Source of the DNA: Patescibacteria group bacterium
GTDB taxonomy: Bacteria > Patescibacteriota > Patescibacteriia > 2-12-FULL-60-25
Assembly (NCBI GenBank): GCA_028688515.1
Contig: JAQTXZ010000002.1
Span: 25,791 to 89,790 of the forward strand
Length of the DNA: 64,000 bases
Direction of reading: 5' to 3'
The notes under the pieces are model-generated. The model was not told the DNA's origin. It saw nothing but the letters and a program-made list of their open reading frames with translations, and ran no database searches. A program made the translations under genes and the position numbers. Positions 3,370-62,679 of the stretch are shown piece by piece; position 1 is the stretch's first letter; the number at the start of each line of letters is the position of its first letter.

Positions 3370-3402
3370 AAAGTCAGGCAAGAAACATGGAAGGAGAAAG
3401 CC

Positions 3403-46010: not shown

Positions 46011-46636
46011 ATGATACCACGATTGAAGTTGTTATAACTTAATTCAAAATCATAAATTGACTTGAATAGATGTGCGAAGGCATCTTTGGAATCAGATTCA
46101 CTGGCTCTTTTTAGCAGCTCGAGGATTTTTTCTTTTCCGTGTTTTTCAACCAAAAATTCAACAACAAAACCGGCTTCCGAATAAACTTCCGCTCCGCCGC
46201 TTTCGTAAAAATCGATGAATTTTAAATACTGTTCCGGTTTTGTCTTAAAATCCAGTTGGCCGGATAAAAATATGGCAATACCTTCTAGCAGCCACACCGG
46301 TTTTTGAGCAGACTTGCTGATGAGATGGGAAAAACAATGCGCCAGTTCGTGTTTTAGCAAGGCAAAATATTTGTCGTCGGAATATTTGTGGCTGCTCTCT
46401 TTTTCAAAATTTTTATCAGAAAGAATATAAACGGTCTTTCCGTTACCCCAACCCACAACCCAAGCCTCCGTAGCTTTGCCTTTTAAAGCGTTTATGGTTT
46501 TTCTGTCTGGCACTATAACGACGTTCGGTTTGCCATGCTCCCACCCCAAATCAAAAAAAGAATCCAATTCCCGCATTGATTTCTCGTAAACTGCATTCAA
46601 TTTTTTGTCGGTGATCCCATTAATCTTAAAAAGCAT
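46007..46636 (-). CDS. HExxH metallopeptidase-like protein
   Basis: LLKHELAHCFSH motif. 4-nt overlap with the downstream GNAT gene. Confidence 0.45.
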   Translation of the reverse strand: MLFKINGITDKKLNAVYEKSMRELDSFFDLGWEHGKPNVVIVPDRKTINALKGKATEAWVVGWGNGKTVYILSDKNFEKESSHKYSDDKYFALLKHELAHCFSHLISKSAQKPVWLLEGIAIFLSGQLDFKTKPEQYLKFIDFYESGGAEVYSEAGFVVEFLVEKHGKEKILELLKRASESDSKDAFAHLFKSIYDFELSYNNFNRGII

Positions 46637-46671
46637 AAGCGGTTTTTAAGGGTTTTTGGCAGAGGCATTAA

Positions 46672-47088
46672 TTATCCTTTCAGTTTCTTATACAAACATC
46701 TGTATTTTCCGCCTCGAAGGTAGCCGCGCTTCTCGTAATATTGCTGGAGCCCCGCATCATCTTCGTTAACGAAGATGGCGACTTCATCTTCGCTGTCTTT
46801 TTTCAACATTTCTTCTGCGTGTGAAATCAGCGAAGATCCAATGCCTTTGCCACGTTGGTCTTCTATTACGGCAAGACGAAATAAAAAACACGTCCATTTA
46901 TCTTTAATAATAAGTATGCATCCAAGCACCCCATCATCATTCTCGGCAATGAGAATGCTGTTGCTGTCGTTTTCACTTTTTGCTTTCCAATGCGAACGGC
47001 TGTCCCAAACATCATCAAAATGCCCGCCTTGCTGCAGGATGACTTTTACCTCGTCGTAATCCTTATCTTGATATGGCCGGATGTTCAT
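46672..47088 (-). CDS. GNAT family N-acetyltransferase
   Basis: QRGKGIGSSLISHAEE motif. Confidence 0.75.
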   Translation of the reverse strand: MNIRPYQDKDYDEVKVILQQGGHFDDVWDSRSHWKAKSENDSNSILIAENDDGVLGCILIIKDKWTCFLFRLAVIEDQRGKGIGSSLISHAEEMLKKDSEDEVAIFVNEDDAGLQQYYEKRGYLRGGKYRCLYKKLKG

Positions 47089-47095
47089 AGCCGAT

Positions 47096-47506
47096 TTACA
47101 ACCACAAAGAAAACTTTTTGGTCAGCTCGTCCAGTTCGTCTTTTTCGCCGATCAAACAAATACCGTAATACTCAAGATCCGCCTCTGGCGCGGCTTTTGA
47201 TCTTTCAACTTGATCCTCCCAGCTTCCAACCGTCATGCGGTCGGTAAACGAGGCGAAGGGAATATTCTTTTCAATGCAGGCGTTTCTCAATGTCCTGATT
47301 TTGTTGGAATTGTCCGCGCGAAGAATTATGAACGGAAATTTTGATGCCAGATGCGCGCCTCCGTCCTTGTCTTCATAATTGACCACGCCAAAATCTTGTC
47401 CGGGATTTGAACCAACCAAACCGATTGTCATGTGCGCCAAAGCGTTCATGATTTTGCCCGTTTCAATTTTTTTATTGAGCACCGCCACGAGTTTTGTGGT
47501 TGTCAT
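47096..47506 (-). CDS. DUF2000-like protein
   Basis: N-terminal KLVAVLNKKIETGKIMNALAHMTIGL resembles DUF2000 proteins from memory. Confidence 0.4.
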   Translation of the reverse strand: MTTTKLVAVLNKKIETGKIMNALAHMTIGLVGSNPGQDFGVVNYEDKDGGAHLASKFPFIILRADNSNKIRTLRNACIEKNIPFASFTDRMTVGSWEDQVERSKAAPEADLEYYGICLIGEKDELDELTKKFSLWL

Positions 47507-47727
47507 ATCGTTACAGGCATCTTGCCGCTTTGCTCAAGCTTTGTCTAGCACGTCGGTTTTATTATCCCGCCCGCCGGGCTAAGTAAAACGGGGGAGGGAG
47601 CCATTGACGGATCGGGTTGGATGCGTGTAAGTTTGATGTCACGTGTCTAACCGGCAAGCTGTCACGGTTGCGTCGGCGAACGCGAGTCGTACGCTAGTCG
47701 ACATTGTTGCGTGCCAAGGAGGATTAG

Positions 47728-48120
47728 ATGAGTCTCGAGCAACATACAAACGCTTTGCTGAAAGGCTTTCAACCGCCGGTATTTCCCAGTTCCCTCATGA
47801 GCTTGGCGCAAATGCTTGTTCAGATCAATGGATCTGAGCTTGGAACTATTGGCAGAGAACTGCCAGGCTGTACCTGTGTTAAGTCGTTCCTCGAAACATC
47901 CGATGGCTATAGTTGGTACCGTTGCATGTTTTTCGGGTCCGGGGGCGAGATTTGTATCGCCATACCATGGTGTCAGGATTGGGAGAAAACTGACGGATTC
48001 CAATCCGACCGTTCGCCCGCGGTTTACGTCTCGCGCCCGGATGTTCCTTTGGAGAAGATCGATGGCATCATCGAACGTCTCGTTGACAGGCTGGTAGAGT
48101 ACAAAAGAGTAGGTCGATAA
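47728..48120 (+). CDS. hypothetical protein, possibly SMI1/KNR4 (SUKH)-like
   Basis: ATG is 6 nt after AAGGAGG. FPSSLMSLAQMLVQINGSEL fits the loose LPxxLxxLLxxxNG pattern. GC-rich. Confidence 0.35.
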   Translation: MSLEQHTNALLKGFQPPVFPSSLMSLAQMLVQINGSELGTIGRELPGCTCVKSFLETSDGYSWYRCMFFGSGGEICIAIPWCQDWEKTDGFQSDRSPAVYVSRPDVPLEKIDGIIERLVDRLVEYKRVGR

Positions 48121-48223
48121 GCCGCGGCAGGTAAGCTCTCAGTACACCTAGAGCGTCTGGCTCACGGGCAGCTTTTTCTCACCGCTTTTTCTGATCGTTA
48201 CGAGGTCGGGAAGGCGGATTTTT

Positions 48224-48697
48224 TTATTGTTTGCTTTGCTCTGTCATCTGCAATATCGCTTGTTCTAACTTTTCAGGTTCATCGGTTCCTACTCTGTACG
48301 TTCTGCCGTTTTTCAGTTTTATTTCAACCGCATCAAAACCGGAAACATTGTAGATCCACATTTTGGGCCACAGCCATCCTCTGATTCCCCATCCATAATA
48401 CCAATGATTCTTAACGGTATTAGCGGATGTTATTTCATTGAGTAAAAATTTTTTTCGATATATGCCGTAGCCAAATTTGATGCGCAAATATTCTCCGTCA
48501 ACAATCACTTGCAGAGACGCAAAGGAAGCGAGAATAAAGATGATTAACGCCATGACGGTTGTAACGGCAAAATTAGTACCTGAATCAACCGAAGGGGGTT
48601 CGGCGGAAGTTGTGATGTAAGCCCATGCGAAAAGCACAAGTACGACAAGCGTCACAACAAGCATCAGATAGCCGATTTGAGTGTGTTTGTAGCTCAT
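48224..48697 (-). CDS. 2-TM membrane protein with PH-like C-terminal domain
   Basis: Two N-terminal TM helices followed by a beta-rich domain. Confidence 0.5.
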   Translation of the reverse strand: MSYKHTQIGYLMLVVTLVVLVLFAWAYITTSAEPPSVDSGTNFAVTTVMALIIFILASFASLQVIVDGEYLRIKFGYGIYRKKFLLNEITSANTVKNHWYYGWGIRGWLWPKMWIYNVSGFDAVEIKLKNGRTYRVGTDEPEKLEQAILQMTEQSKQ

Positions 48698-48758
48698 AAG
48701 GTTGTGATTTTTGTATTCTTTGTTTATAAAGTACGCCGATGGGAGGAGTTACGCAAAT

Positions 48759-49361
48759 TTAATCGACAACCGTGCCGGTTTTGACTTTTCCGGCTCGCTT
48801 GTAATGAGACATGATTAATCCGCTTGGCGTAACGGTGCTCTCCAACAAGGTAAACGCTGCCGGAATCGCGCCGCCGTCAAACAGTTTTTTGCCTTTGCCA
48901 AGAGTCAATGGATAAACGTTGAGCCAAAGTTCGTCCACCAAGTCGTTCTTAAGCAGAAGTTGGATAAGTTTGCCGCTGCCCCAAACTTTAATGTCAGAGC
49001 CTTTTGAATTTTTTAACTTTTTTATATCCGCCAAACTTTTGAGGAAGATGGAATTTTGCCACGGGGAACTTTTCATGGTCTTGGACATGACGTATTTTGT
49101 TACATCATTAATGCCCGGCCAGGAGTCTGCGTGTTTAGGCCAATAGGAGGCAAAGATTTCGTAAGTTTTTCTGCCCAAAAGAAGATCGGCGGATTCCATT
49201 TGTTTTAACATGACCTTGTTGGAAACTTCGTCTGCAAACGGCGCCGTCCAGCCGCCGTACTTAAAGCCGCCCGAAGTATCCTCATCGGGTCCGCCCGGCG
49301 CCTGCATAACGCCGTCTAATGTGACCATTGATAAAACGATGATTTTTCTCATATCTTTCAC
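48759..49361 (-). CDS. dihydrofolate-reductase-family (RibD C-terminal domain) protein
   Basis: GTG start after GGAG. RKIIVLSMVTLDGVMQAPGGPDED...GGW is typical of this family. Confidence 0.7.
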   Translation of the reverse strand: MKDMRKIIVLSMVTLDGVMQAPGGPDEDTSGGFKYGGWTAPFADEVSNKVMLKQMESADLLLGRKTYEIFASYWPKHADSWPGINDVTKYVMSKTMKSSPWQNSIFLKSLADIKKLKNSKGSDIKVWGSGKLIQLLLKNDLVDELWLNVYPLTLGKGKKLFDGGAIPAAFTLLESTVTPSGLIMSHYKRAGKVKTGTVVD

Positions 49362-49566
49362 CTCCTTGCGTAAACATCGTGTATGCCTAATTTCAGCTTG
49401 CCACTTTGCGATAAAATTGTACAGGGTTGAATTTTTGTTTAACGTTGGTTCTGTCGTCCCCCCGCCGATTGAAGTAAAACGGGGGAGCTGTTAGATTTAA
49501 TATTAATCGTATAATGCAATTGCTTTATTGCGACCATTCGCACTTTGCCTCTAAAGGGAGGGCAAG

Positions 49567-49830
49567 ATGAAAAAGGGTGAATTTGTTGCCGAATACGGCA
49601 CATGCGTACTGATTATCGAGGAAGACGATTTTCCTCTGGATGCGGACAATGTGATGCAGGTCGCTTGGGACTTGGGTGCCGCAGAGCACAACGAAGATCC
49701 TGACAATCCGGACAGCTTGCTCTGGATCCGCTTTCCCGGCAAAGAGGATGAACTGTGCGGCAGCCTTCTTGATTTGCGTAACGCCATCTATTTTGAGGAG
49801 AACAGGCGGTCTCATGCGCGCAACGGCTAA
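49567..49830 (+). CDS. small acidic hypothetical protein
   Basis: ATG after AGGGAGGG. Terminator-like hairpin at about 49852-49878. Confidence 0.5.
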   Translation: MKKGEFVAEYGTCVLIIEEDDFPLDADNVMQVAWDLGAAEHNEDPDNPDSLLWIRFPGKEDELCGSLLDLRNAIYFEENRRSHARNG

Positions 49831-49929
49831 GCCGTGTTCGTAAGCTTCTCCGGTCGATCTCCAAGATCGGCTTTTTTTGTAAAAATAGGAATGAATTTTG
49901 CGTGGATTTGTCGGTTGTTATCTGATTTC

Positions 49930-50065
49930 GTATACCGTCTAGGTATATGTGAAGTCGGCTGAAGTGAAGGCGGTAAAATTGAACTGTGCTCTACCGCCGT
50001 AACGGAAGCCGATTTGGGCGTAGCTGGGCGTTAGCCACAACGCAGGCACATATACCTTGTTGTAC
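49930..50065 (-). repeat. attC-like site A (distal, partly degenerate)
   Basis: Plus strand: ATTTCGTATACC-G-TCTAGGTATATGTG...CACATATACC-TT-GTTGTAC-GATGT. Confidence 0.55.
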
Positions 50066-50087
50066 GATGTTGTTGTGAAAATTTATT

Positions 50088-50792
50088 TCATTTCTTTGCA
50101 ATAATAAGTGCAGTGTTCAAATGCTCATAAGCAACACTAATTTCCGAAAAGCCTGCCTCCTTCAGCCAGTCAATTTGATCCTCAATCGGGGCAAGCAAGT
50201 TCAGAAATTTATGATGATAAGCCCATTCTTTAAGTGATGGTTCGTTGCGAGCATGTTCGACTAGGTGATGAAAATGCTGAGCATCATTAATGGCCGCCTT
50301 GGTTTTAGCTTTGTACGTGACTAAATCACCAAATATGAACACACCGCCAGACTTTAAAGAGCCGTAGATTTTTCTGAACAATTTTTTCTTACCTTCGTCT
50401 TTCTGATGATGGATACCAATAACAGATATAACCATATCGAAGTCGTCATCCAGGTTAATTTCAGCATAATCACCTAGGATATATGCGACGTTGTATTTTG
50501 ATAATCGCTTTTTTGCTCCGTCCATCATTTTTTCAGAAAAATCTACAGCCGTTAATGATGCGGTCGGGATAAGTTTCAGTATCTTTTCTGAAGTAAGCCC
50601 GGTTCCAATACCAAGCTCCAATATTCTTTCAACCTTGTTAGAAGCAATATACTCACGGGCGACCTCCTCAAATTTTTTATGCAGCTCATCATGACCTGGT
50701 ATTGAACGGCGAATATCATCGTCATAAATTTCTGACTCATACGAATCATAATTTAGATCGCCCGCAGCAACATTTGTGGTTCGATCATCCAT
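50088..50792 (-). CDS. cassette gene: class I SAM-dependent methyltransferase
   Basis: Motif I ILELGIGTGLTS and post-I AVDFS. Paralogue of 51691..52383 and 40239..40946. Confidence 0.8.
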   Translation of the reverse strand: MDDRTTNVAAGDLNYDSYESEIYDDDIRRSIPGHDELHKKFEEVAREYIASNKVERILELGIGTGLTSEKILKLIPTASLTAVDFSEKMMDGAKKRLSKYNVAYILGDYAEINLDDDFDMVISVIGIHHQKDEGKKKLFRKIYGSLKSGGVFIFGDLVTYKAKTKAAINDAQHFHHLVEHARNEPSLKEWAYHHKFLNLLAPIEDQIDWLKEAGFSEISVAYEHLNTALIIAKK

Positions 50793-50844
50793 ATTGTTAT
50801 TGCAAAGAAATGAATTGATAAGAGTAAATTTTCACAACAATTTC

Positions 50845-50983
50845 GTACAACGTTTCTGAATATCTGAAGTTTGCCAAAATTCCTTTAAAAATCAATTAGT
50901 TTTGGCAAATTTGGGTGAAGATATTTTGCATTCCTTAGCTTTTAATTGTGAAAAATTCCTGAACCGGATATGCCGTGTTATGT
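50845..50983 (-). repeat. attC-like site B
   Basis: ATTTC-GTACAAC-GTTT-CTGAATATCTGAAG...CCGGATATGCC-GT-GTTATGT-GATGT. Confidence 0.65.
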
Positions 50984-51007
50984 GATGTAGCCAGAAATTT
51001 CTATTCC

Positions 51008-51394
51008 TTAATTATTTTTGGTTTCTTTGTTTCTGTATGCATATAAATACAATGCAATAAATAATGGGATAAAAATAACAATATTAATTGTGGCAATAAC
51101 AGGTTGAGACAAGCCGCCCATATCTTTCTCTACTGTCTCTTGAACGACTTGTGACAATGGCAAAATATATTGTTGAAAAATATTCCAAACTATATATCCG
51201 CCAAAGAATATTTTCCAGAACATTAAACTAAACCATCTTTTTTGCCAACAGAATGCAAATAGCCCCACCATGGCTACCAACATAAGAGCAACATCAATAA
51301 CTTCCCAAACTCTTGAGAATCCTTGCCACAAATATGTTGGAATTATAGCAATTAAAAGAAACCAAAAATAAATTTTCCAAAAAGTTTTTTTCAT
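51008..51394 (-). CDS. cassette gene: 4-TM small membrane protein
   Basis: 128 aa with four hydrophobic helices. Confidence 0.6.
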   Translation of the reverse strand: MKKTFWKIYFWFLLIAIIPTYLWQGFSRVWEVIDVALMLVAMVGLFAFCWQKRWFSLMFWKIFFGGYIVWNIFQQYILPLSQVVQETVEKDMGGLSQPVIATINIVIFIPLFIALYLYAYRNKETKNN

Positions 51395-51500
51395 AATGTT
51401 ATTTGGTTAAAAATTAAATATATTTCATTATACACAAGTTATACCGACCACGAAATAAATTACCAAACAAATCTTAAAAAAAGAAATTTTTGGCTATTTC

Positions 51501-51600
51501 ACTTAACGTATCCGAATAAACGAAGTTCGTTTGAAACGCAGTGAGAACGAATTTGCGAAAATGCCGAGCCGAGGCATTTTCCGTTTATTCGGTGTTAGAC
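51501..51600 (-). repeat. attC-like site C
   Basis: ATTTC-ACTTAAC-GTAT-CCGAATAAACG...CGTTTATTCGG-T-GTTAGAC. Confidence 0.75.
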
Positions 51601-51690
51601 GAGGGTTTGTTTCGTCCTCCTATTATATCAATATTCAAAGGCAAAACAAAAGCGCAGCGTCCCCTTGCGTATGCCACAAACATAAATTAT

Positions 51691-52383
51691 TTACTTTTTA
51701 GCAAAGAATACAGCATAATTCATATATTCCCAAGTACTTCTCGAGTCAGAAAAGCCAGCGTCCCTTAGCCATTGCAATTGCTCATTAACCGAACTTGGCA
51801 AGTCCTCCTCTTTGTAATTATCAAACCAATATTGACCTTCTTTTGTCCCGAGATTTTTGATGAGAAAAGCCCTCCACTCTTCCTCTTTTGCAATAGTTTC
51901 TTTTTCTGAATCAAATTTGACAATATCCCCCAATACAAAGATACCACCACTTTTAAGATGATTGAAAATTTTCTTGAACAATTCTTTCTTTTGTTCACCA
52001 GTAAGATGGTGAACGGAGAGTACGGCCACACCAGCGTCGTAATGTTTTTCCTTAAGTTCAAGGTCTTTAATATCTTGCTCGATAAAATGAACATGACTCA
52101 GATTATCCCTTAAGCGAGTTTTGCCCTGTTCAATCATCTTGGGGGATATGTCAAATCCATCAATTACCGCTTGAGGATATTTGTTTAACAAGTGGAGGGC
52201 GGTTTTTCCAGTACCGATACCGAGATCCAATAATACTGGCTTTTCTGACGTTGTATTCACAAGGTCAATTACACTTTGATGCATTTTCTCATAATTTGGA
52301 ATGAGCTTTTTTATTAAAGCATCATAATCATGGTATTTCGCTTCAAAGTGTTCCTTGACTAAACTGCTGTGTTCATTTTCCAT
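51691..52383 (-). CDS. cassette gene: class I SAM-dependent methyltransferase
   Basis: Motif I LLDLGIGTGKTA. Same C-terminal extension ending FFAKK/IIAKK as 50088..50792. Confidence 0.8.
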   Translation of the reverse strand: MENEHSSLVKEHFEAKYHDYDALIKKLIPNYEKMHQSVIDLVNTTSEKPVLLDLGIGTGKTALHLLNKYPQAVIDGFDISPKMIEQGKTRLRDNLSHVHFIEQDIKDLELKEKHYDAGVAVLSVHHLTGEQKKELFKKIFNHLKSGGIFVLGDIVKFDSEKETIAKEEEWRAFLIKNLGTKEGQYWFDNYKEEDLPSSVNEQLQWLRDAGFSDSRSTWEYMNYAVFFAKK

Positions 52384-52414
52384 GAAAATTAATTTAGTTT
52401 TTGTGGCATATTTC

Positions 52415-52491
52415 GCCTAACGTTTCCGAGTATCTGATGTTGCGAAGCAATATGGGTGGAGCGAAGCGGAACCAGATACTCGGTGTTGTAC
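52415..52491 (-). repeat. attC-like site D
   Basis: ATTTC-GCCTAAC-GTTT-CCGAGTATCTG...CAGATACTCGG-T-GTTGTAC-GATGT. Confidence 0.8.
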
Positions 52492-52618
52492 GATGTAGAT
52501 TTTTTATCGTCGTCTTTAGTGGTACTTACGATATTTATTTTAAAAGAAAATTTGATTTTTTGTTTTGAAAAATTAAAGAGGGGTAGGGGGTGAATTTCAT
52601 TTTTCAAAGCTTATTATT

Positions 52619-53545
52619 CTACTTCTCAAGTAAGGGTCTTTGAAGCTCTGGGTTATTTTCGTCGATTTCGGCCATTTTATTTACTGGTATCAAATCAGCT
52701 ATAGATTCTTCACGTTTCCAATTTTGTAAAATATCCCAAATATTTCCTTCGCCAATGTAATCCATAGTTAGCTCACTTCTTTTTGCTTCATATTGCGGAT
52801 AAAGTACACTTTGCGGGTCTTTGATAAATCTTTCAGCAAAATCTTCTGTCCCATTGTAAACATCAGTAATCCATTCGGGTCTCAAGTCTAGTGTGTTTAC
52901 TTCTTTTTCCATTTCAATATTCATAGTTTTGAAGAGAGGATGAACTATTACATCATCGGAAGGTATAGAAAATTCAACAACAGGAAGTCCCTCTTTGTGA
53001 CCAGTGCGTGATTCAGCGGGATTGTGAGGGGGTTGATAAGAAGCTCCGACTGAGACTGAATTAAGTCCTGTCAAGCCCGGAAAATCACCACCGGGACCAA
53101 TATGCAGTTTGAATAATTTAATTCGAGGTATTTTGTGTTGAACAAAATTTCGATAACTATCTAATGAAAAATTGTCTGATAATTCAGCAAAGTCTTTTTC
53201 AAGTTGTGCGTAAATATCCTCTTGTTCAAGAAAACTTCGTAACGCATCTTTAATTCGTTTCGAATTTTTTTGAAAAGATTCTGCCGCATTAGGATTCTCC
53301 AAAACTGCATTTTGGGGATGGTTTAAAATTGCATTCAGTTCTTCATAACTAACCAATCTAAAATATCTGACAGGATTACCTTTGCTATCCTTGTCGGCGG
53401 CGGTTAGTATTTCCCGCTTACGTTCCTCTGGAAATAGATTGCGGGTTAACGATATTCTTTCTTCAATTGATGTGTCGGTAGCAGTAAGGCGAGAAATTAG
53501 AACATTTCGATTAATGTTTTCTGGCGTTGGCATTGCTTCGTTCAT
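52619..53545 (-). CDS. cassette gene: hypothetical protein
   Basis: 308-aa ORF bounded by sites D and E. No motif recognised. Confidence 0.6.
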   Translation of the reverse strand: MNEAMPTPENINRNVLISRLTATDTSIEERISLTRNLFPEERKREILTAADKDSKGNPVRYFRLVSYEELNAILNHPQNAVLENPNAAESFQKNSKRIKDALRSFLEQEDIYAQLEKDFAELSDNFSLDSYRNFVQHKIPRIKLFKLHIGPGGDFPGLTGLNSVSVGASYQPPHNPAESRTGHKEGLPVVEFSIPSDDVIVHPLFKTMNIEMEKEVNTLDLRPEWITDVYNGTEDFAERFIKDPQSVLYPQYEAKRSELTMDYIGEGNIWDILQNWKREESIADLIPVNKMAEIDENNPELQRPLLEK

Positions 53546-53638
53546 AAACCCCTTTATTATATTATTAAAAAAATGAAATTTTCTGTCTTTTTAAAATCAT
53601 TTAAACCCTATTTTACCACGAGATAAAAAATTTATTTC

Positions 53639-54256
53639 GTACAACGTTTCCGAATATCTGAAGTTGCGCCCGTGTTTATTGGTTAAAACTTCAAACATTC
53701 TACTATCTTAATTATATCACTAAACTTTGTTTTATCACAGCGCAATTTGAGTGGAACAGAAAAGAAAATCACAAATATTTTCCTTATTTTAAGCCCTTTT
53801 TTTGAATTTTTTGAAAGTGCTATGGACAAAGACTGAAAAATATGCTATAGTCTAGTGTCCAGTGGATTTCCCGCTGGCATACCTTACAAAGGAGGACATT
53901 ATGAGGATCGCTTTTCTTCTGGTAGCATTGTGGAATACGGTGGTGGCAGCAATTAACGTCAATATATTGCCGTTGTATATGTCACCGGAAGCCATGGTAT
54001 ATGTAACACCGTTATCACAGCTTCTTCCAATCTGTATACCACTCGTAATTGCGGCAGCATTGCCAAGTGGAGGCAATTCAATCACGCTCAACGACCTTCG
54101 CAAATGTTTGTCGTAAGCAATTCACGACTTACCCCCTGGTGGAATCTATTTCTACCAAGGGCTCTTTTTTTCAAAAAATTCAAAAAAAGGGCCATATAAA
54201 TTGTAAAAAATATTTGTGATTTTCTTTTCTGTGTAACCAGATATTCGGTGTTAGAT
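53639..54256 (-). repeat. attC-like site E, interrupted or expanded by a 477-bp IR-flanked module
   Basis: Left half ATTTC-GTACAAC-GTTT-CCGAATATCTG. Right half CAGATATTCGG-T-GTTAGAT-GATGT. The two halves are 590 bp apart. Confidence 0.55.
53901..54116 (+). CDS. small 2-TM hydrophobic protein inside site E (reverse orientation, own promoter and SD)
   Basis: ATG is 6 nt after AAAGGAGGA. TGGACA-17-TATAGT lies upstream (about 53823-53850). MRIAFLLVALWNTVVAAINVNILPLY.... Confidence 0.5.
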   Translation: MRIAFLLVALWNTVVAAINVNILPLYMSPEAMVYVTPLSQLLPICIPLVIAAALPSGGNSITLNDLRKCLS

Positions 54257-54355
54257 GATGTTTTGCCGACTCTGCAAGCTACAAATTACTTTATTGGAAC
54301 AAACTTTTTATCTGCACGAACATTTTTTAGTTTCTATATTACAAGGCGAAATTTC

Positions 54356-54422
54356 ATCTAACGTCATCGCGATATCTGACGTTTTAATGTGGCGAAGCCC
54401 TTGCAGATATCGCGTGTTAGGC
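54356..54422 (-). repeat. attC-like site F
   Basis: ATTTC-ATCTAAC-GTCAT-CGCGATATCTG...CAGATATCGCG-T-GTTAGGC-GATGT. Confidence 0.8.
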
Positions 54423-54439
54423 GATGTAAAGCCCAAAAA

Positions 54440-55309
54440 TTAATTTATAACCGCCATTAATGTTCTTTCTTTGCCAAATTTATTATAATCTTCTTTTGCT
54501 AAGGATAGACTATACGGAACGAAGGCTTGATCAATTAAACTTTCTGTTTTTTGATAAATGGTTTCAAAAAATTTTTTGTGTTGCACCGTGGCTTCAAAAC
54601 CATCCGTGTAAAAAACCACCAAATCTCCCTTGCTTAATCCGATTTCTCCAAAATTCATAAACTTTTCAGCTTCATTTTCACCGGTTAATGCGCCGTAAGA
54701 AACACATTTATTTTCAACGATTTTTTTGGCGTTGTTTCTATATTCAGACCTGATCATCTTGCGGTACTTAGGCATGGCAAAATTGAAATCGGATTTTTGC
54801 AGATTTGATTTTTCATATTCTTCAAACGTCTTCATCCAATTCGGTGTCTGAAATTTAATTTTGCCATTTTTATCATAAACAATAATTCCACAGTCACATA
54901 TTCCAGCCCAGAATAGTTTGCCGTTATAAATAATTCCACCACTGGCAACGCAGCCAAAAAAATCATTTATCAAGTAATCAACTTTTTTAGTATTGTCTTT
55001 GTTCAACTCGGCAATCTTTTTATTTCCAAAAATAAATGCGTTTCTGATTGTTTTTAATGAAGGAATTTTGTTATCTAGAGATTTTACAAACGATTCACAA
55101 AAAATATCAGCTGAAAAACGGGCACCACTTGGATTTGGATAATTTTTCAGAGAATCTTCTATGGACAAGTTTGTAAAATCTTTTGGAGAAATTGGATCTC
55201 GTGTAATTCCATCGGCAACACAAAAAATTTTTCCATCAACCATCATTGAATCTTCCGGAGGCATTAGATGTCCGTATAATAAATTTGGCAAAGATACTTT
55301 ATAAATCAT
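54440..55309 (-). CDS. cassette gene: PP2C/SpoIIE-like phosphatase-fold protein (tentative)
   Basis: FCVADGITRD and VVFYTDGFEA resemble the two Asp-containing PP2C motifs. Confidence 0.4.
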   Translation of the reverse strand: MIYKVSLPNLLYGHLMPPEDSMMVDGKIFCVADGITRDPISPKDFTNLSIEDSLKNYPNPSGARFSADIFCESFVKSLDNKIPSLKTIRNAFIFGNKKIAELNKDNTKKVDYLINDFFGCVASGGIIYNGKLFWAGICDCGIIVYDKNGKIKFQTPNWMKTFEEYEKSNLQKSDFNFAMPKYRKMIRSEYRNNAKKIVENKCVSYGALTGENEAEKFMNFGEIGLSKGDLVVFYTDGFEATVQHKKFFETIYQKTESLIDQAFVPYSLSLAKEDYNKFGKERTLMAVIN

Positions 55310-55333
55310 AAATTAATTTTTGGGCTTTATTTC

Positions 55334-55451
55334 GTCTAACGTTCCGGGCTATGCGAAGACCGCCTCAAGCGGTTTTGGGTGAGCGTCCTAATTCGCTTTA
55401 GCTACCTAAATACTAGCAAAACCGTCGCGAACCGCATAGCCCGAGTTAGCT
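55334..55451 (-). repeat. attC-like site G
   Basis: ATTTC-GTCTAAC-GTTC-CGGGCTATGCG...CGCATAGCCCG-A-GTTAGCT-GAAGT. Confidence 0.75.
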
Positions 55452-55673
55452 GAAGTATTCCTTTTCTTTTTTCCTTGATTTTACTGTTAAAATTTTTAAA
55501 TTTCTTTTTCTTTTCTGTGTGGAGGGCAAGAGGGGAAATAAAGGGGTGAATTGCCCGGAGCTACTAAAAAACTTTACTACATATAAAAAGGAAGGGGTTT
55601 AGGTTGGGGGTGGGGTGGGGTGGGGTGCTTTTTATTTAGGTTTGATTCCTAAAATTTTAATGTAAACTTACAG

Positions 55674-57929
55674 TTACTTATCAAATGTAACTATACCCTG
55701 TGCCTTGTTGTAAATATCAATTTTATTATCTATATCTACACGATTTACCAACCAACCAAGTAATTCGCATTGATGCACAAAATCATTAATTCTATTAACA
55801 CCATTAATCTCTTTTAATGTCACAACCAAACCAAAATTAATATCATTACTGCGCCTACTCAATCTTTCTTTTGATTTAACGCTGAGTCCCCACATGCCTT
55901 TATCGTAAACATCGCGTGCAAGAACTCTATCTGTAAAAATTTCATTTATATGTTTAGTGTTGTCCCATTTTCGGTAAAATTTCCTGGCGTTACCTTCGTA
56001 TATATAATGTTTTTCACCGTCATTATTATTTTGACAATTCTTGTTTATAGACTTGATGCCCTTGCCTTTGATTCTACCAAAATATATATCTAGCTCCGTG
56101 TTTGTGTAATCAACTCCTTGATTAATAGAGCAACTGGGGAAATAACATAAGGTAGCTTTAGCAACAAAAGGGTGTTTATTGTTATTTATTGGAACAGGTA
56201 AATTATAAGCATATGTATCCCATTTTTTAGAGATACCACTAATAATAAACTTTATTTCATCATTATCCGCTTTTATAATGTTTTCTATATTTTTAGGTAC
56301 TACACCATGACCCACAAAGGGTGCTAATTTAGTATTATTACCAATGCTATTCCACCCAGCAGCAGCATCTATAATTAGTGCTTTTGCGACTTCTCGGTTA
56401 AGCCCAAGGACTTCTATTAAATAAGCAATTTTTCGTGTTACCCATGGAGCTGCGTATGAAGTACCACTACATAAGCCTTCGCCAGTTGGCGTGCACACCC
56501 TAAGATAATCGCCTTTATCACCGCCATAACTGCTAACGTCTGGTTTATTAAAAAATGATAAAACTAACCCCTTTCTTGAATAGGTTGCTGGAGACCCCTT
56601 ACTATTTACCGAATTTACAACTATAGCGTTAATTGAATCGGCGGGTGAGCCAATCATTTTTTCCACTCTACTTTCATCGTCGCGTTTATTAGTACCTGCT
56701 ATTACAAAAATAACATTATTTTCGTATTGAATTTCGTCTAATATAGCAGCTTCTGGTGATATAAAATTGGGATTAATTTCTCTATCGGATCCCAAAGATA
56801 GATTCCATACTGTTATATCGGGATTTGAAGTAACTATCTCTCTTATGGCCTTCATAATAGAAAAAGCACTATACTGTCCTTGTGCGGCTACGCCAAAATG
56901 CCTAACTTTAAATCTACCACACCCATCATCTAGCTCTGGGTGAATAGTTGGCCCATCAACAATAATTGAACTTACCGATGTTCCGTGAACATAATCTTTG
57001 GATTCCGTAGGTATCTCCTCATTGATCATTTTTCTAAAATCCACCCATTCAGAAAAATATACTGATTTATCAAATAAAGTATCTATTACCCCTACAATAG
57101 GTTCGTCTTTTGGTGGGTCTATTGTTTTTATAGTCGCATCGCTGCTTGCGTCATCAACAACCTCCTCAAAACTTAGTTTAGATATATCTTCTGTCGACAT
57201 TGCAATAAGATAAGGAGCCTTGTCTGACAAGAGTTTAATTTCGTCTGGATATAAAAGTAAGGTGGTTTCACTTAGTATTTTATCAGGCTGAATATTTATA
57301 CCGATCCCTTTCATCAATTCAGTTAAATCGACATTTGTTTTATATACTGTAATTATCGATCTATTGTTTGTATTCGCGCTATTATTAGGAACCTTAAAAC
57401 CTTCTATATAATGTGAATCTACAATTATATTTCTAAAATTTGTTTTTGTGACCCCATATTTTTCATACTTAATATTTTTATCATTTAAACCACTAATCAA
57501 ATCGTGGGTTATCTTTCCGTTAAATATTTCATCTAATAGCTTTATACAGCCTTCTAATTTTTTAATTGTATCCTGAATTACTTTTTCGCTAACATGATGC
57601 GTAATCACATGTTTTCTTGTCACTTCATTAGCAAATCTCGCACCAACAACAGAATCATTTACAGAGCCACTATTTGATAATAGCCCACTTATCCTATTGC
57701 TCTTAGCGATGACGTCGATATAACAAACATCAACTAGGCAACCTTTGATAATACTTTGTCTAGTCCAATAATCAGCTAAGGCATTAAGCTGACTAACAAA
57801 AGACTTTAGTTTATCAGAATCTATAGATGGGGAATTTTTAGGAATGTTACGAGAGCTTGGCCGGATATCATGCGAGCGTTCCTGAAGAGTTCCTTTTAAT
57901 TGAAGTATGTTATTCATAATTTTAGACAT
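55674..57929 (-). CDS. S8 (subtilase) serine peptidase with ~290-aa unknown N-terminal domain (IetS-like)
   Basis: Catalytic contexts VGVIDT (D), HGTSVSSII (H), WNLSLG (N) and GTSYAAPWV (S). Confidence 0.85.
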   Translation of the reverse strand: MSKIMNNILQLKGTLQERSHDIRPSSRNIPKNSPSIDSDKLKSFVSQLNALADYWTRQSIIKGCLVDVCYIDVIAKSNRISGLLSNSGSVNDSVVGARFANEVTRKHVITHHVSEKVIQDTIKKLEGCIKLLDEIFNGKITHDLISGLNDKNIKYEKYGVTKTNFRNIIVDSHYIEGFKVPNNSANTNNRSIITVYKTNVDLTELMKGIGINIQPDKILSETTLLLYPDEIKLLSDKAPYLIAMSTEDISKLSFEEVVDDASSDATIKTIDPPKDEPIVGVIDTLFDKSVYFSEWVDFRKMINEEIPTESKDYVHGTSVSSIIVDGPTIHPELDDGCGRFKVRHFGVAAQGQYSAFSIMKAIREIVTSNPDITVWNLSLGSDREINPNFISPEAAILDEIQYENNVIFVIAGTNKRDDESRVEKMIGSPADSINAIVVNSVNSKGSPATYSRKGLVLSFFNKPDVSSYGGDKGDYLRVCTPTGEGLCSGTSYAAPWVTRKIAYLIEVLGLNREVAKALIIDAAAGWNSIGNNTKLAPFVGHGVVPKNIENIIKADNDEIKFIISGISKKWDTYAYNLPVPINNNKHPFVAKATLCYFPSCSINQGVDYTNTELDIYFGRIKGKGIKSINKNCQNNNDGEKHYIYEGNARKFYRKWDNTKHINEIFTDRVLARDVYDKGMWGLSVKSKERLSRRSNDINFGLVVTLKEINGVNRINDFVHQCELLGWLVNRVDIDNKIDIYNKAQGIVTFDK

Positions 57930-58968
57930 TTAGTTCTCTCGAAACTTGGCTTTTAGAAACTCCTGTTAATATTTCTATTTCTCTAACCGTAAAACCGCTG
58001 TGTTGTAATTTTTTTAAATCTATCTTGTTGTCTTTAGTCCGTATAGATTCATATAATTTTTTTAAGTAATCGTATTCATTATTTGGATCACTAAACGCTA
58101 GTGCGGTTTTAATTATATTTTTTAAATCACCGGGATAAGGAATATGATCTAATGTTAAAAATATTTTTTTAAATAGCCTCATATTGCGACTAGCGAATTT
58201 AAATTTTGTTAAAAACTCATTTAACATTGATTCTGCGACTTCAATCAATTCTTCTTTGTTATATCTATTAAAATTTATAGTTGAATCAAATCTTCTAAGT
58301 AACGCCTTATCGAATTGCCCAAAAAGATTAGTGGTGGCTATAAGTACGATTTCATCACTTAATCCATCCAACCCTTTTAAAACAGAAGATGTTACTCGAC
58401 CCATTTCTCGTAAATCATTAGAATTAATTCTATCTAGAGCTATTGCGTCTATCTCGTCAAACAAAATAATCACTTTTTCTGGGTGAGGTAATCTACTTAA
58501 CTCTGTAAAAACGGAAGCAATGTTTTTGGACGTTTGGCCAAGCTTGCTATCAATAACACTATCAAAATCTATCGCATATAAATCACGTTCAAGAATACGA
58601 GCAATCTGTTTTGCGGTTTCAGTTTTACCTGTTCCAGGATCACCCTCAAATAAGAACTTACTAACTCCAATTTTATGTCCAATTGAATTTATAATGCCCA
58701 CTATATCGTTTTTTATAAGAGTGGGGAGGGGGAAGGAGTTACTACTATCTAAGTTCACTCTCATAAAAAATGGAAGGCTGTATTCGTTGTCCTGTGGTAC
58801 AAAAGTATTAGCACCAGACAGCAAAGCCATAATATATTGAGCCAATTCAGAATCTCCAGTAGAATCGAAGTACCTAGCTATATCATAAGCTTCATTTTTA
58901 AAACCCGCCTCATTTTTTTCCGCATGGTATTTAATTAAATTTAAAATATTTTTTTTGCGCATATACAT
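57922..58968 (-). CDS. AAA+ ATPase with C-terminal HTH (IetA-like)
   Basis: Walker A GDPGTGKTETA, Walker B ILFDEIDAI, ATTN sensor-1. C-terminal FTVREIEILTGVSKSQVSRELN. 8-nt overlap with the S8 gene. Confidence 0.88.
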   Translation of the reverse strand: MYMRKKNILNLIKYHAEKNEAGFKNEAYDIARYFDSTGDSELAQYIMALLSGANTFVPQDNEYSLPFFMRVNLDSSNSFPLPTLIKNDIVGIINSIGHKIGVSKFLFEGDPGTGKTETAKQIARILERDLYAIDFDSVIDSKLGQTSKNIASVFTELSRLPHPEKVIILFDEIDAIALDRINSNDLREMGRVTSSVLKGLDGLSDEIVLIATTNLFGQFDKALLRRFDSTINFNRYNKEELIEVAESMLNEFLTKFKFASRNMRLFKKIFLTLDHIPYPGDLKNIIKTALAFSDPNNEYDYLKKLYESIRTKDNKIDLKKLQHSGFTVREIEILTGVSKSQVSRELNV

Positions 58969-59231
58969 TTTTTTAATGAAATGAATTTATGTTATCCATA
59001 CTTTATATTAACATATTTGGGACACCAGTACAACAAAATGGGACACAATAATAAAAAATTGCGATTTCATTGATGTTTTGCCTTTCATATATTTAATCCT
59101 ATTAATGCAAAAAACGCCTTAACTAGGCGTTTTCCGTTGCTGTCTTTAGCTTAAACAATATATGAAATTTCACTTTTTCCATTAGAACCACATTTTTTGT
59201 GCATTTTCCATGCTGGTTTTGATTTATTTAG

Positions 59232-60395
59232 TTACCGATTTCCCTTTGCCCTATTATGCGTCTTACACAACATCTGACAGTTTTTTGTTGCAGTTTTACC
59301 GCCTTTGCTCCAAGCGGCAACATGATCTGCATCCATATCACTCAAGCTCCAAATTTTATCTATGTTTGCATCGTGGCCTATTGCACAATGTGGGCAGTTT
59401 GAAACACCTTTTTCCTTTGCAGTAGCGGTTTGAACTTCGTAAACTGACCGCTTAGTCGGGTCATCAAATACACGCACCTCCAGTAATTTTTTATCAACCT
59501 CACCACCTAAAACATATTCGAAAATCCCTCGTCGATTCTTTACGTAAGCATCACCGTACAGCTTCTGTACTGAAGCGGACACTTTAGCCGGGTCGTATTT
59601 TTTCTTGTGGTAAGTTTTGTAAAGCCTGTTCCACTCAAGACCTTTCATTTCGCTTTCAACGTCTGTGAACGTGGTTGAAACCCAGTCGATAACAGTATTA
59701 AAATGCTTTTTTAATTCGGTTATATTTTTATCATTACGGTGCATGCTCATATAATTGTCGATCGCACCATCAGAAACCCAATCCAAAGCACGCTCCAAAT
59801 ATGCTTGGCGCTTAATGTCACCAGCAATGTACGTGCTCCACTTCTGTACGTTTGCGTTTTGGCTATTACTAAACTCTTCGCGCGCCTTGGTAACAAAAGG
59901 CCCTGAATAAACAGCGTTCAAGATTTCTTGCTCTGTCAGTGGCACACCAGCGATATTGATAGTTTTAAACCAATCCTTAATTTCAGGTTCGTCACCTTCA
60001 CATACATACACTAGTAATTTAGTGTCCATTATTTGCTCACGCTGACTACTAGCCATGCCACTGAAATACTGTTCATGGCCATTTTTATCTTTGACAGCAA
60101 ACTTACCTGCCACAAACCGACCAATACTTGTGATGCGTTGCTGTCCGTCGAGCACTTCAAATATATCAGTACCTGCTTGGTTAAAATAAATTAAACCTAT
60201 CGGATAACCTTTCAAAATTGAATCGATCACCGCAACGTCTCTTTTACCATCGGCATAAATGTAATTACGTTGGTACTCTGGCTGAATAGTTAACTTGCCT
60301 GACAAGCCAAACAAGCCTTTTCCTTCCAGTTCGTTATAAACAAAACCGTCGCAAATTTCTTTTATAGTGATGTCTTTTTTTAGGGTTGTTTTCAT
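59232..60395 (-). CDS. DUF262 (ParB/GmrSD N-terminal-like) + HNH nuclease fusion
   Basis: [12 protein letters not shown] motif. C-terminal CPHC...DADHV...[18 protein letters not shown]/zinc-hook. Confidence 0.8.
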
Positions 60396-60397
60396 AA

Positions 60398-61552
60398 CTA
60401 TTTTTGCAGTTGTTTAACTAATAATCGCGGAAATGTTTGACGATAAAGTTTTTCATTTACAATGTAATAAGTTTTGTTTTTAAGTGGTTCACTAATTTTT
60501 AAAACTGCACCATCATTTAATTTAGTTACCTTACTTTTTTCATTATTTTCTCCGACCTGTATTTGTTCAGGATAGGTTTTGGTAGCAGCACCGAACCAGG
60601 TTTTAGTTAAACCCAGAATTTCAAATTGATCAGGATTGTACTTATCTAGAAACGAAACAGGAACCCCCATAACACCATTGTAATTGCTAGGGATAGCGTC
60701 GACAAAAGGAACTTCAATTGCGTTAAAATTATCATATTTTTCGTACGCTTGTTTTCCTTGCAGTTTTTTGTTGAATTTTTTGTTATCACTCATAGACATC
60801 AGACTCATGGGTTGATGGCGACGACCGTGATCAAGATTAGTGAACCAACCCACGTTTCCAAACGACTGAGTTGAGCCATCGGGTTTATTAAATACTTTGA
60901 CTTTACTATATCCAAACCATATTTTATTGTCCTTAACCAACGGAAAGATTTCTTTTAGAGTAATAGAGTTTTGATTACCTATAATAAGAAAATTCCTTTT
61001 ATATTCTACTAGCTGTGCCACGTACTCACGAAATAAACTAAATGGTGGATTAGTCACCACAATATCACTTTTCTTAAGAAGTTCTATACATTCGTCACTA
61101 CGAAAATCACCGTCGCCGTCAAGAGGAGTCCATTCGTTATTTTTATTCGCTCGAAGTTGTTGTGCAATATCTTCTAGTGTAAAGGACCCGTCGCCGTCTA
61201 TATCGCCAACTTCGTTGATAATAAATTTGTTAGCAGTGATTTTAGGTCTCCCCTTTGATTTGGTAAGAGTTTTGTCATCGCCAAATAATCCCAGTTGTGT
61301 ATTGGCTACGGGTGAGGGTTTGTAACTCGTTGAAATAAGTTTTTTTAGGCCCAAACGATCAAAGTTTAATACAAAATAACGAAAGAAATTGCTTTCGTAT
61401 GGGTCGTCGCAGTTGCTGTAAATTACCTTATTTTTAAAAGTATTTGGGTTATACTCAAGATAAGATTCAATTTCTTTCTGAATATCTGAAAATTGCGTAT
61501 AGAATTCATCATTTTTTGCTTTTTTTGCTTTTGTGAGGTTTTTGTTTGCCAT
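60398..61552 (-). CDS. N6-adenine DNA methyltransferase, EcoRI-methylase-like family
   Basis: NDEFYTQ N-terminal motif and TNPPFS (NPPF) catalytic motif. ATG at 61552 (the TTG at 61573 is an alternative). The stop is 2 nt from the DUF262-HNH start. Confidence 0.8.
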
Positions 61553-61863
61553 ACATTCAATATATTCCTCCAATTACATTAATAAATCAAGATATTAATA
61601 TAAAATTAGATTTTCGTAGAAACTCCTTATAACCCCCTCTAAAATTAAATCCCAACATTATGAAAAGAAAAAGAAATTTGAAAATTTTACTAAATGGCTT
61701 TGTTCGTAGCTAAGAAAAAAGAAAAGGAATATTTCAGCTAACTCTTTTTTATACGAAAACACTTCGTATAGCTATCCACATCTTGCCACTTAGGCGAAAA
61801 AATGTATAGAATGGATTAGGTGTGAAGAGTTGACGGCCTCACTAATTATTAAAGTGAGGTTTT

Positions 61864-62679
61864 ATGTTAGATGAACAATTGAAGCGGACGTCGGACGAGA
61901 TGGTTTTGCGTAATTACAGTCAAAAAACGGTTAAGGCGTATGTTGGTTGTATTGAGGATTATCTAAGTCAGAATCAAGCGGACTTATATTGGTGTGATAT
62001 CGAGGCGATCCGTCAATTTTTGCTGGAGAAGCAGTCAAGAGGGTTGGCGCCGCAGACTATCAATCTATATCTAAACGCCATAAAGTTTTATTATCGTGAT
62101 GTTTTGCATTTAGGCGACACGATCAATCTAAAATTCGCTAAACGCTCGAAGAAGCTACCGGTTGTTCTGTCGAAAAGCGAAGTTTTACGAATCATTGACG
62201 CTGTCAGCAATCCAAAACATAAAGCGATGATCGCTTTGGCATACGGTGCCGGCCTTCGTGTTAGCGAGGTCGTTAAATTGCGGATCGGGGACTTGAATTT
62301 GGAGGAGTTGACCATCCATCTCAAGCAAGCAAAGGGAAACAAAGATCGGATTACCATCTTGTCTGCATCTATAGTAAATGATTTAAGACGGTTGATGACT
62401 GGAAGGTTGGTCGGCGATTTTGTGTTTGCCAGTGAACGCGGAGGGAGATTGACGGAGAGGACGGCGCAAAAGATTTTTGAACATGCCCTTAAAGCCGCCC
62501 GAATCGGTCGGGGAGCGACATTTCATTCGTTGAGGCACAGCTTCGCGACTCATCTTTTGGAAAATGGAGTTGATGTCAGGTACGTTCAGGAACTTCTTGG
62601 TCACCAGAATATTCGGACTACGCAGATTTATACGCACATAACCAATCCGGCGATGCGGCGGATTGTAAGTCCGCTATGA
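61864..62679 (+). CDS. tyrosine recombinase, IntI-like but without the IntI-specific insertion
   Basis: N-terminal SAM-like YSQKTVKAYVGCIEDYL. Catalytic contexts AGLRVSE (R), HSLRHSFATH (H-x-x-R) and LLGHQNIRTTQIYTH (H...Y). C-terminal ...RRIVSPL resembles IntI1 ...GVRSPL. Confidence 0.9.
   Translation: MLDEQLKRTSDEMVLRNYSQKTVKAYVGCIEDYLSQNQADLYWCDIEAIRQFLLEKQSRGLAPQTINLYLNAIKFYYRDVLHLGDTINLKFAKRSKKLPVVLSKSEVLRIIDAVSNPKHKAMIALAYGAGLRVSEVVKLRIGDLNLEELTIHLKQAKGNKDRITILSASIVNDLRRLMTGRLVGDFVFASERGGRLTERTAQKIFEHALKAARIGRGATFHSLRHSFATHLLENGVDVRYVQELLGHQNIRTTQIYTHITNPAMRRIVSPL

Follow-up and report, generated by a model that had tools for sequence, protein, structure and literature searches.

Sedentary chromosomal integrons have been described as carriers of anti-phage cassettes (BRiCs; Kieffer 2025, Darracq 2025 and Getz 2025, as cited in 10.64898/2026.03.17.712381 and 10.1101/2024.07.02.601719). 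It was only in 2025 that integron cassettes were recognised to carry defence systems, and the size of a cassette is thought to limit its mobility. In Vibrio, the larger a cassette, the lower its recovery, and one with attC sites 4 kb apart, owing to an inserted insertion sequence, was not recovered at all (10.64898/2026.03.17.712381). The present work deals with a 64,000-nt stretch of contig JAQTXZ010000002.1 from a member of the Patescibacteria (candidate phyla radiation, CPR). This stretch is called the window, and coordinates refer to its numbering unless a comparison locus (L-number) is named. A 6.3-kb unit at 55445-61742, next to a tyrosine recombinase gene, was found to carry two anti-phage modules, namely a type II restriction-modification (RM) pair and an ietAS pair. 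It is likely that this unit is a single mobile cassette, which occupies the recombinase-proximal position of an integron-like array in a Patescibacteria chromosome.

Like the sedentary chromosomal integrons, the locus combines a divergent recombinase, an attI-like site, co-oriented cassettes, AAC...GTT palindromes with covarying stems and defence cargo. Several features set it apart from them. The recombinase, of 271 aa, is XerA-like and lacks the IntI-specific domain, and the host belongs to the CPR. In its sites, R boxes of 12 nt and an asymmetric bulge replace the canonical spacer layout, the cassette ends are complementary for about 75 nt past the R boxes and have conserved leader and trailer frames, and one cassette holds two complete systems in 6.3 kb.

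Archaeal integrons are a further point of comparison, since a survey found attC arrays in 75 genomes and only 6 IntIs (Ghaly et al. 2022, PMC9668308). The window array resembles these archaeal arrays, most of which had no detectable IntI, in belonging to a small-genome lineage. In contrast, the archaeal IntIs that have been reported possess the IntI-specific domain (PMC9668308), while the window recombinase does not. An Xer-like enzyme of the window type might serve some of the archaeal attC arrays. The pdif modules of Acinetobacter plasmids likewise depend on an Xer-family recombinase and consist of gene modules between inverted sites, exchanged between replicons; the window sites differ from them in being long covarying palindromes of a single orientation, placed beside a dedicated recombinase gene and an attI-like site. 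No description of integrons or attC arrays in Patescibacteria (CPR) was found in the literature searched, which does not prove that none exists. What appears to be new here is the presence of defence cassettes in a CPR integron-like array, with an Xer-like recombinase and long conserved two-ended frames. Standard integron detection requires the IntI domain and would miss such a platform; at best, its arrays would appear as clusters of orphan attC sites.

The cargo has known counterparts as well. The ietAS system was reportedly first described by Gao et al. in 2020. The window pair agrees with ietAS (PADLOC-DB; NCBIfam IteA/IteS) in its overlapping genes for an AAA+ ATPase and an S8 subtilase and in its full-length PADLOC matches; it differs in being divergent, in lying downstream of an RM pair and in its location in a putatively recombinase-mobilised cassette. 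An NPPF methylase adjacent to a DGQQR-HNH nuclease is what the unit shares with type II RM systems of an EcoRI-like methylase and a DUF262-HNH nuclease; a difference is the DUF2130 gene that stands between methylase and nuclease in one copy of the cassette.

Boundaries, cargo and recurrence of the unit

The unit is a single element with GTT/AAC cores at both limits. Its left limit is the GTTAGC core at 55445, the right end of attC-like site G (55329-55456), and its right limit is the GCTAAC ending at 61742, which adjoins the attI-like repeat. Four open reading frames (ORFs), all on the minus strand, fill the unit. They are given here with the two signals predicted between them:

60398..61552, minus strand: EcoRI-like N6-adenine DNA methyltransferase (EcoRI_methylase PF13651, 2e-113; PADLOC MTase_II, 1.2e-96; NPPF motif)
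59232..60395, minus strand: restriction endonuclease, DUF262/GmrSD_N (DGQQR) with C-terminal HNH (PADLOC REase_II, 8.5e-88, full length; Pfam GmrSD_N and HNH)
59109..59135, minus strand: intrinsic terminator after the RM pair (hairpin and U-tract, -15.2 kcal/mol, z = -4.2), kept in L001, L002 and L003
59005..59045, minus strand: candidate ietAS promoter/operator, direct repeats TGTCCCA-N14-TGTCCCA (21 nt apart) overlapping TTGTAC-17-TAATAT
57922..58968, minus strand: IetA AAA+ ATPase (PADLOC IetA, 1.5e-44, residues 6-346; Walker A 109-116, Walker B 167-172)
55674..57929, minus strand: IetS S8 subtilase (PADLOC IetS, 1.4e-63, residues 72-738; Pfam Peptidase_S8, 1.5e-31; D-H-S triad)

An earlier note on this DNA, made from the sequence alone, had described a single recombinase-proximal unit between the junction core at 61742 and site G, with four tightly packed genes. 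The four gene identities it gave were borne out by matches in Pfam, PADLOC and NCBIfam and by the catalytic motifs, which are intact in the methylase (NPPF), the nuclease (DGQQR and HNH), the ATPase (Walker A and B) and the protease (D-H-S). The immune module it had proposed proved to consist of two known defence systems, as the PADLOC check of the four proteins returned type II RM (MTase_II, REase_II) and IetA/IetS. In the RM pair, a motif IV methyltransferase and a separate endonuclease are adjacent, with 2 nt between the genes, and the methylase start (ATG 61552) is the one kept in relatives. The ietA and ietS genes overlap by 8 nt, which is the adjacency expected for an ietAS system. The minus-strand coordinates of the note were correct, but the packing is not uniform, with a gap of 263 nt between the nuclease gene and ietA.

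This gap holds the terminator and then the promoter/operator. The TGTCCCA repeats and the promoter-like pair precede ietA at every locus examined, including L088 and L090 outside arrays; loci of the latter kind were seen in a Shapirobacteria genome and in Acidithrix. The C-terminal tail of IetA, FTVREIEILTGVSKSQVSRELNV, is helix-turn-helix (HTH)-like by sequence and was matched by no domain model. From the previous designation as "AAA+ ATPase-HTH" the ATPase stands, and a C-terminal HTH is plausible; this tail may autoregulate the ietAS promoter.

Both modules also occur alone. The RM pair, with nucleases 86-89% identical, was found in marine Gammaproteobacteria and in another genome, with no attC-like sites nearby, and in a Flavobacterium phage at 70% nucleotide identity. 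The ietAS pair alone was found in other genomes at 61-77% protein identity, again with no attC-like sites nearby, and on Clostridium perfringens plasmids at 70% nucleotide identity. Among plasmid and phage records, none covered at least 80% of the unit, and only separate halves were detected. Since each module occurs by itself and no record covers the whole, the cargo appears to be a composite of two autonomous, widely travelled anti-phage modules. Carriage of the whole unit by a phage or plasmid was considered and rejected, as only separate halves are on record and the frame at the cassette ends, described below, is absent from viral contigs.

Whole copies of the unit recur in at least two other genomes and partial ones on two further contigs, and close relatives of IetS (87-93%) come from other Patescibacteria. 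Look-ups by exact protein, for the window IetS and for a nuclease 100% identical to that of the window, gave no record. In a Magasanikbacteria locus (L003) a 270-aa recombinase precedes the same attI-like repeat, GTTAGCC and the genes for methylase, nuclease, IetA and IetS in this order, followed by ...GGCTAAC with an attC-like site, a GNAT cassette, another site and core genes (ruvC, rpoC). L001 has a five-gene version, in which the DUF2130 gene is inserted between the methylase and nuclease genes, inside an array of at least 13 sites; the neighbouring cassette there (875-4584) is a 3.7-kb two-gene unit of a trypsin-like protease and Shedu (SduA_C). The search for the unit elsewhere that had been suggested thus returned the same genes with boundary repeats inside arrays, the opposite of conserved chromosomal neighbours lacking such repeats, which the earlier note had named as evidence against a cassette.

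Between loci, the nuclease-ietAS stretch shows 82-89% nucleotide identity, with IetA/IetS at 87-96% protein identity, while protein identity is only 59% between the window recombinase and that of L003, and the units lie in different chromosomal contexts. On a metagenome contig (L115) a related methylase-nuclease pair is the first cassette beside a 52%-identical recombinase. Similar cargo beside dissimilar recombinases is the pattern expected for horizontal movement of cassettes between platforms. Among the copies in the window, L001 and L003, divergence was greatest in the methylase (65-69% aa identity, vs 72-87% for the nuclease and 87-96% for IetA/IetS), and its C-terminal ~70 residues fail to align between these copies. 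The methylase divergence and the DUF2130 insertion suggest mosaic evolution within the cassette.

The recombinase platform and the cassette ends

The features that surround the cargo are the following:

61864..62679, plus strand: 271-aa tyrosine recombinase, divergent from the cassettes (Pfam Phage_integrase and SAM_4)
61749..61771, no strand assigned: attI-like inverted repeat TTATACGAA-aacac-TTCGTATAG, 6-7 nt from the cassette junction, with arms resembling the R boxes (TTCGTAYA) of the attC-like sites
61731..61742, minus strand: R' box of the first cassette, top strand GTTAGCTGAAAT, with the probable crossover core at 61740-61742
61553..61742, minus strand: cassette leader of the frame A family, with terminal inverted repeat (TIR) block 1 (61714-61744), TIR block 2 (61662-61689), a promoter-like pair and a degenerate leader hairpin
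55445..55673, minus strand: cassette trailer, with a C-rich motif (55521-55556), TIR block 2 (55488-55515), TIR block 1 (55443-55473) and the R'' box
55456-55445, minus strand: R'' box ACTTCAGCTAAC, within the trailer
55329..55456, plus strand: attC-like site G, putative recombination site of the 6.3-kb cassette, an R''-L''-loop-L'-R' palindrome (covariance model, 93.6 bits)

Among NCBIfam models, the recombinase scored 215.9 bits with XerA_Arch (cut-off 220) and 206.7 bits with integrase_gron (TIGR02249; cut-off 265), the latter matched in two stretches; with PRK15417 it reached 127.6 vs 435. Its nearest solved relatives are archaeal XerA proteins. Relatives 50-84% identical are common in Patescibacteria metagenome-assembled genomes, and the platform is widespread in this group. 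The model finds 31 sites in 13 of 40 such recombinase loci; all 31 share the strand of the recombinase gene and lie upstream of it. Relatives 34-38% identical were observed in DPANN archaea (Woesearchaeota, Pacearchaeota; L031, L046).

The attI region is conserved from the recombinase gene to ...T/AAC in the window, L006, L007 and L003, and the loci differ to the left of this AAC (61740-61742). The cassette junction was placed at 61740-61742, in agreement with the earlier note, because the conservation of the four loci stops exactly there. L006, with a recombinase 84% identical to that of the window, has an identical attI region, unrelated sequence past the AAC and a different first cassette. 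The attI-like site presumably serves as a recombination site.

Seven palindromic sites lie between 49.9 and 61.7 kb of the window, each reading on the plus strand as ATTTCGYMYAAC, L'', loop, L' and GTTRKAYGATGT. All the cassette ORFs between them are on the minus strand, directed away from the recombinase. Their common fold consists of R stem, asymmetric bulge and L stem; of its 20 predicted pairs, 7 show compensatory changes. As in attC sites, the palindromes are imperfect, AAC/GTT cores are present (invariant in all seven) and structure is kept rather than sequence. A search of Rfam with the sites, the leader and the trailer matched no family. The platform thus appears integron-like in anatomy, and lacks one feature that defines membership, the IntI domain.

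The 30-bp TIRs previously ascribed to the unit were found again and are longer than claimed, extending over about 75 nt in two blocks: 55443-55473/61714-61744 (31 nt, 97%) and 55488-55515/61662-61689 (28 nt, 96%). Cassette ends were scored for 14 gene-bearing cassettes of the window and L001, with the shared 12-nt R boxes excluded. The end-to-end alignment score of the 6.3-kb unit was 25.5, vs a non-cognate mean of 7.1 (sd 2.1). Cognate scores of the gene-bearing cassettes ranged from 8 to 29, above the non-cognate maximum in 11 of the 14, and short empty cassettes scored about 5. This suggests that TIRs are a trait of most gene-bearing cassettes in the window and L001 arrays and not a mark of the 6.3-kb unit. 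In the circular form of the cassette the junction is predicted to fold at -72.9 kcal/mol, vs -36.8 in the array context; the repeats would lengthen the stem of the site, because an excised circle brings both ends to flank the cassette's own site.

The end sequence itself is widely shared. The exact 23-mer GTTAGCTGAARTATTCCTTTTCT is present in more than 120 metagenome contigs among the matches listed, and neither it nor the frame was found in 2.9 million viral contigs. In this frame, called frame A, the 23-mer is followed by a conserved leader of ~130 nt and preceded by diverse attC L' arms or attI-type junctions; among 81 inspected copies of the end sequence, none was outside these contexts. 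Many frame units close with ...AAAAGAAAAGGAATACATCAGCTAAC at a distance of 0.97-9.2 kb, with a conserved trailer of ~170 nt, and complete units end just before the L'' arm. The 80 metagenome loci selected by the frame hold 129 model sites, and in 11 of them recombinases 40-58% identical to that of the window were found.

The cargo of framed units is on the top strand and, in these loci, large units carry mostly defence genes and small units ordinary cassette genes. The large cargo includes type I, IIG and III RM systems and PDC-S37/Mokosh-like helicases of 1.1-1.7 thousand residues. Examples are a 9.2-kb type I RM cassette with an OLD/AriA-like ATPase (L102, 121-9368) and a type III RM system of more than 5.7 kb, the first cassette of its locus, with the same leader as the window (L007, 1-5703). 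Against the supposed size limit it is notable that the 6.3-kb cassette stacks two immune systems and that the framed family includes cassettes of 4-9 kb. Mobile defence islands of this framed kind may form a large reservoir in organisms about whose immunity little is known, and the two-ended frame gives access to the question of how cassettes arise and are expressed. The frame was rejected as a marker specific for defence, since the cargo of small framed cassettes includes methyltransferases, transporters and further genes that are not defence genes. The L001 defence unit has a different frame (GTTATACGCAAT...), which is seen also on neighbouring cassettes of other loci; hence one frame can hold different cargos, and one cargo can stand in different frames.

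A promoter-like pair, TTTTCA-16-CATAAT, is located in the leader at 61684-61657, where TIR block 2 contains the -35 box and the unique part the -10 box. No minus-strand promoter-like site corresponding to a platform promoter (Pc) was found in the attI/recombinase 5' region, by a scan whose matches were not enriched over shuffles. The earlier note had assumed the unit to be in the best-expressed position of the array. With no cassette promoter identified in the attI region, and a unit that seems to carry its own expression signals, the position beside the recombinase probably matters less for expression than first proposed.

Some further elements were observed in the frame. In 8 of 35 sequences, a hairpin in the frame A leader, GTTTTC...GAAAAC (columns 123-151 of alignment A4; ~61610-61625 in the window), has a compensatory change from UA to CG. 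Both ends of frame A bear, on the same strand, small local hairpins whose loop is TATC. The C-rich trailer motif GGGCAWTTCACCCCTTTAATTCCCCTCTGCCC, on the top strand and enclosed by a hairpin, is found at 55521-55556, at ~52575-52600 and at the 3' ends of most frame A units. A (GGGGT)n run lies near it at 55606-55627.

Proposed movement of the cassette and competing explanations

The following scheme is proposed for the cassette. The methylase would protect host DNA by N6-adenine methylation (m6A), and the DUF262-HNH nuclease would cut unmodified DNA. The terminator would separate the two modules, with ietAS expressed from its own, possibly IetA-regulated, promoter. Upon excision as a circle, the ends would become contiguous around the attC-like site, with the junction trailer-attC-G/TTAGCTGAAAT-leader, and the folded site would have its R''/R' stem lengthened by the TIRs of about 75 nt. 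The adjacent XerA-like recombinase would be the enzyme that recombines this folded site with the attI-like one at the GTT core. As the leader probably supplies expression signals, the cargo would have no dependence on a platform promoter.

A tentative extension of this scheme, which we regard as possible but rather unlikely, is that the frame is a reusable cassette chassis, repeatedly loaded with unrelated cargo of 1-9 kb. It is prompted by the existence of empty frames of ~80-110 nt, by cargo shared between two frames and by a frame shared by many cargos. In the excised circle, the trailer, attC site and leader would form a contiguous module of ~450 nt with a stem of ~100 bp. The terminal complementarity would zip the ends of the single-stranded cassette, so that an Xer-like recombinase could move defence islands largely independently of their length. 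If this were true, it would give a testable route to the unsolved origin of integron cassettes and define a new class of integron-like element in the CPR, and possibly in DPANN archaea.

The 6.3 kb were treated as a single cassette with site G as its own recombination site. A covariance model built from the seven sites of the window recovers all of them at 63-101 bits. Inside 55457-61730, with and without filters, it gave a single match (59082-59168; 20.5 bits, E = 0.03), and a simple core-pattern search for attC-like sites inside the unit yielded none that was credible. A weak functional site at about 59082-59168 could split the unit into two ordinary cassettes, one with the RM pair and one with ietAS: the match falls in the 263-nt intergenic gap, and the two halves occur separately elsewhere. 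The match was nevertheless rejected as a site, since it is in reverse orientation, lacks the invariant AAC/GTT cores and lies on the conserved terminator, and its short palindrome is not kept in L001, L002 and L003; it is for these reasons that the single-cassette reading was preferred. In addition, no frame-type leader or trailer is present at the nuclease-ietA junction, and the halves are together in every array copy with both unit ends on the contig (L001, L003). Of the explanations weighed here, two cassettes is the least probable. A chance that is only slightly better, and still very small, is given to an integrative genomic island, in which the recombinase, as the integrase of the island, and the four genes would move as a whole, with the neighbouring palindromes as unrelated repeats. 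In two genomes a homologous recombinase gene directly adjoins the unit, as it would in such an island. However, these recombinases are 59% identical, vs 87-93% for IetA/IetS, the L006 recombinase (84%) has another first cassette beside its identical attI region, the L001 unit is deep inside an array, and the recombinase loci of 13 genomes carry arrays with other cargo. The possibility raised in the earlier note, that an independent TIR-bounded transposable element had inserted into a pre-existing GTTAGC core, did not hold up well and is regarded as very unlikely. It would account for the long TIRs (~75 nt) and for the high repetition of the end sequence in metagenomes. Against it, the four ORFs all have other assignments, with no transposase among them, the unit ends show no duplicated target site, and most other gene-bearing cassettes have complementary ends of their own. 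Moreover, the 81 inspected copies all keep to the attC L'-arm or attI-type context, with complete units ending before the L'' arm, and zero copies were found in the viral contigs.

Mechanistically, the chief competitor is an array built as a chain of pdif-like Xer-type modules, which we consider unlikely, though less so than the preceding explanations. The half-palindromes (R box, spacer and L box, ~27 bp) would be double-stranded Xer sites, recombined by ordinary double-strand exchange. The XerA-like recombinase without IntI insertion fits this scheme, as do the composition of R''+L'' (12+4+11 nt with an invariant AACGT centre) and the inverted sites that flank every gene segment. The L boxes, however, differ between sites yet pair within each site, and the compensatory changes at 7 of 20 pairs fit recognition of a fold better. 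The cassette-specific complementarity of the R boxes and flanks has no role in a double-strand model, and all sites have one orientation relative to the recombinase gene. This complementarity suggests that folded strands are the substrates.

The reading as a single mobile cassette of an integron-like array is therefore retained as the likely one, and the following observations count against it. The asymmetric bulge of the sites is on the arm opposite to that in the canonical attC layout. The recombinase lacks ~40 residues, corresponding to the IntI-specific domain around patch III: in the alignment to VchIntIA (2A3V) it has 20 residues where IntI has 63, with the break at 175/195 of the query vs 178/241 of IntI. 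It is thus not of the IntI type, and integron-type single-strand recombination cannot be assumed for an enzyme without this domain, which is reported to be necessary for integron integrase activity (Messier and Roy 2001, as cited in PMC9668308). The mobility of the unit is deduced from comparative data only, and neither excised circles nor empty sites nor population variants were seen. Regarding the cargo, NCBIfam equivalog cut-offs were missed by IteA (121.3 bits, 5e-35, vs 510) and by IteS (150.7 bits, 5e-44, vs 900). As these scores are far under the cut-offs, the window IetA and IetS appear to be divergent family members, whose membership rests on the PADLOC models and the gene architecture. 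The promoter scan gave 32 matches vs 24.9 +/- 5.8 in shuffles, which is no enrichment, and it missed the clear terminator at 59109-59135; the promoter assignments are for this reason putative. The leader hairpin was rejected as a stable RNA, being thermodynamically not distinctive, modest in its covariation and degenerate in the window. Finally, the 102 inter-site intervals have a median of 774 nt, with 12 of at least 3 kb and 5 of at least 6 kb, the 6.3-kb unit among these five; this agrees with the unusual size pointed out in the earlier note, although both interval and cargo statistics are biased and indicative only, as the metagenome loci were chosen by frame sequence.

Other features of the array

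The G+C content of the proximal cassettes is 33-36%, vs 45-60% elsewhere in the window, which is consistent with a recent foreign origin. Within 50000-62000 it was 31-39% in the recombinase-proximal cassettes and 48-53% in the recombinase and the comEC-like flank.

The second cassette (54416-55340) has a 33-nt TIR and a 289-aa ORF with a sub-threshold PP2C_2 match. Perfect inverted repeats of 20 nt (54468-54487/55275-55294) and 18 nt (54567-54584/55215-55232) are located inside the ends of this ORF, so that the complementarity of the cassette ends reaches into coding sequence.

attC-like site E (53634-54261) is split, with its L'' arm reaching to ~53665 and its L' arm starting at ~54236, 570 nt apart. 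Between the arms lie an ORF of 83-84 aa and two pairs of perfect inverted repeats (53756-53781/54207-54232 and 53793-53816/54169-54192). This segment may have been inserted into the attC loop as a nested element, or the loop may be unusually long.

Empty cassettes of ~80-113 nt, lacking an ORF, were found between sites in the window (54250-54362) and in L001 (702-781, 4698-4777 and 12649-12730). In L001, an 80-nt spacer with a 93-nt site recurs several times, and L147 contains a 78-nt unit composed of frame ends alone.

Past the last model-detected site, at 45300-49900, the window holds more co-oriented small minus-strand genes, with a G+C content of ~46-49%. Possibly the array is older here and its sites are of another type. 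Short G+C-rich palindromes with AAC...GTTAG ends were observed at 47540-47600 and 49438-49497.

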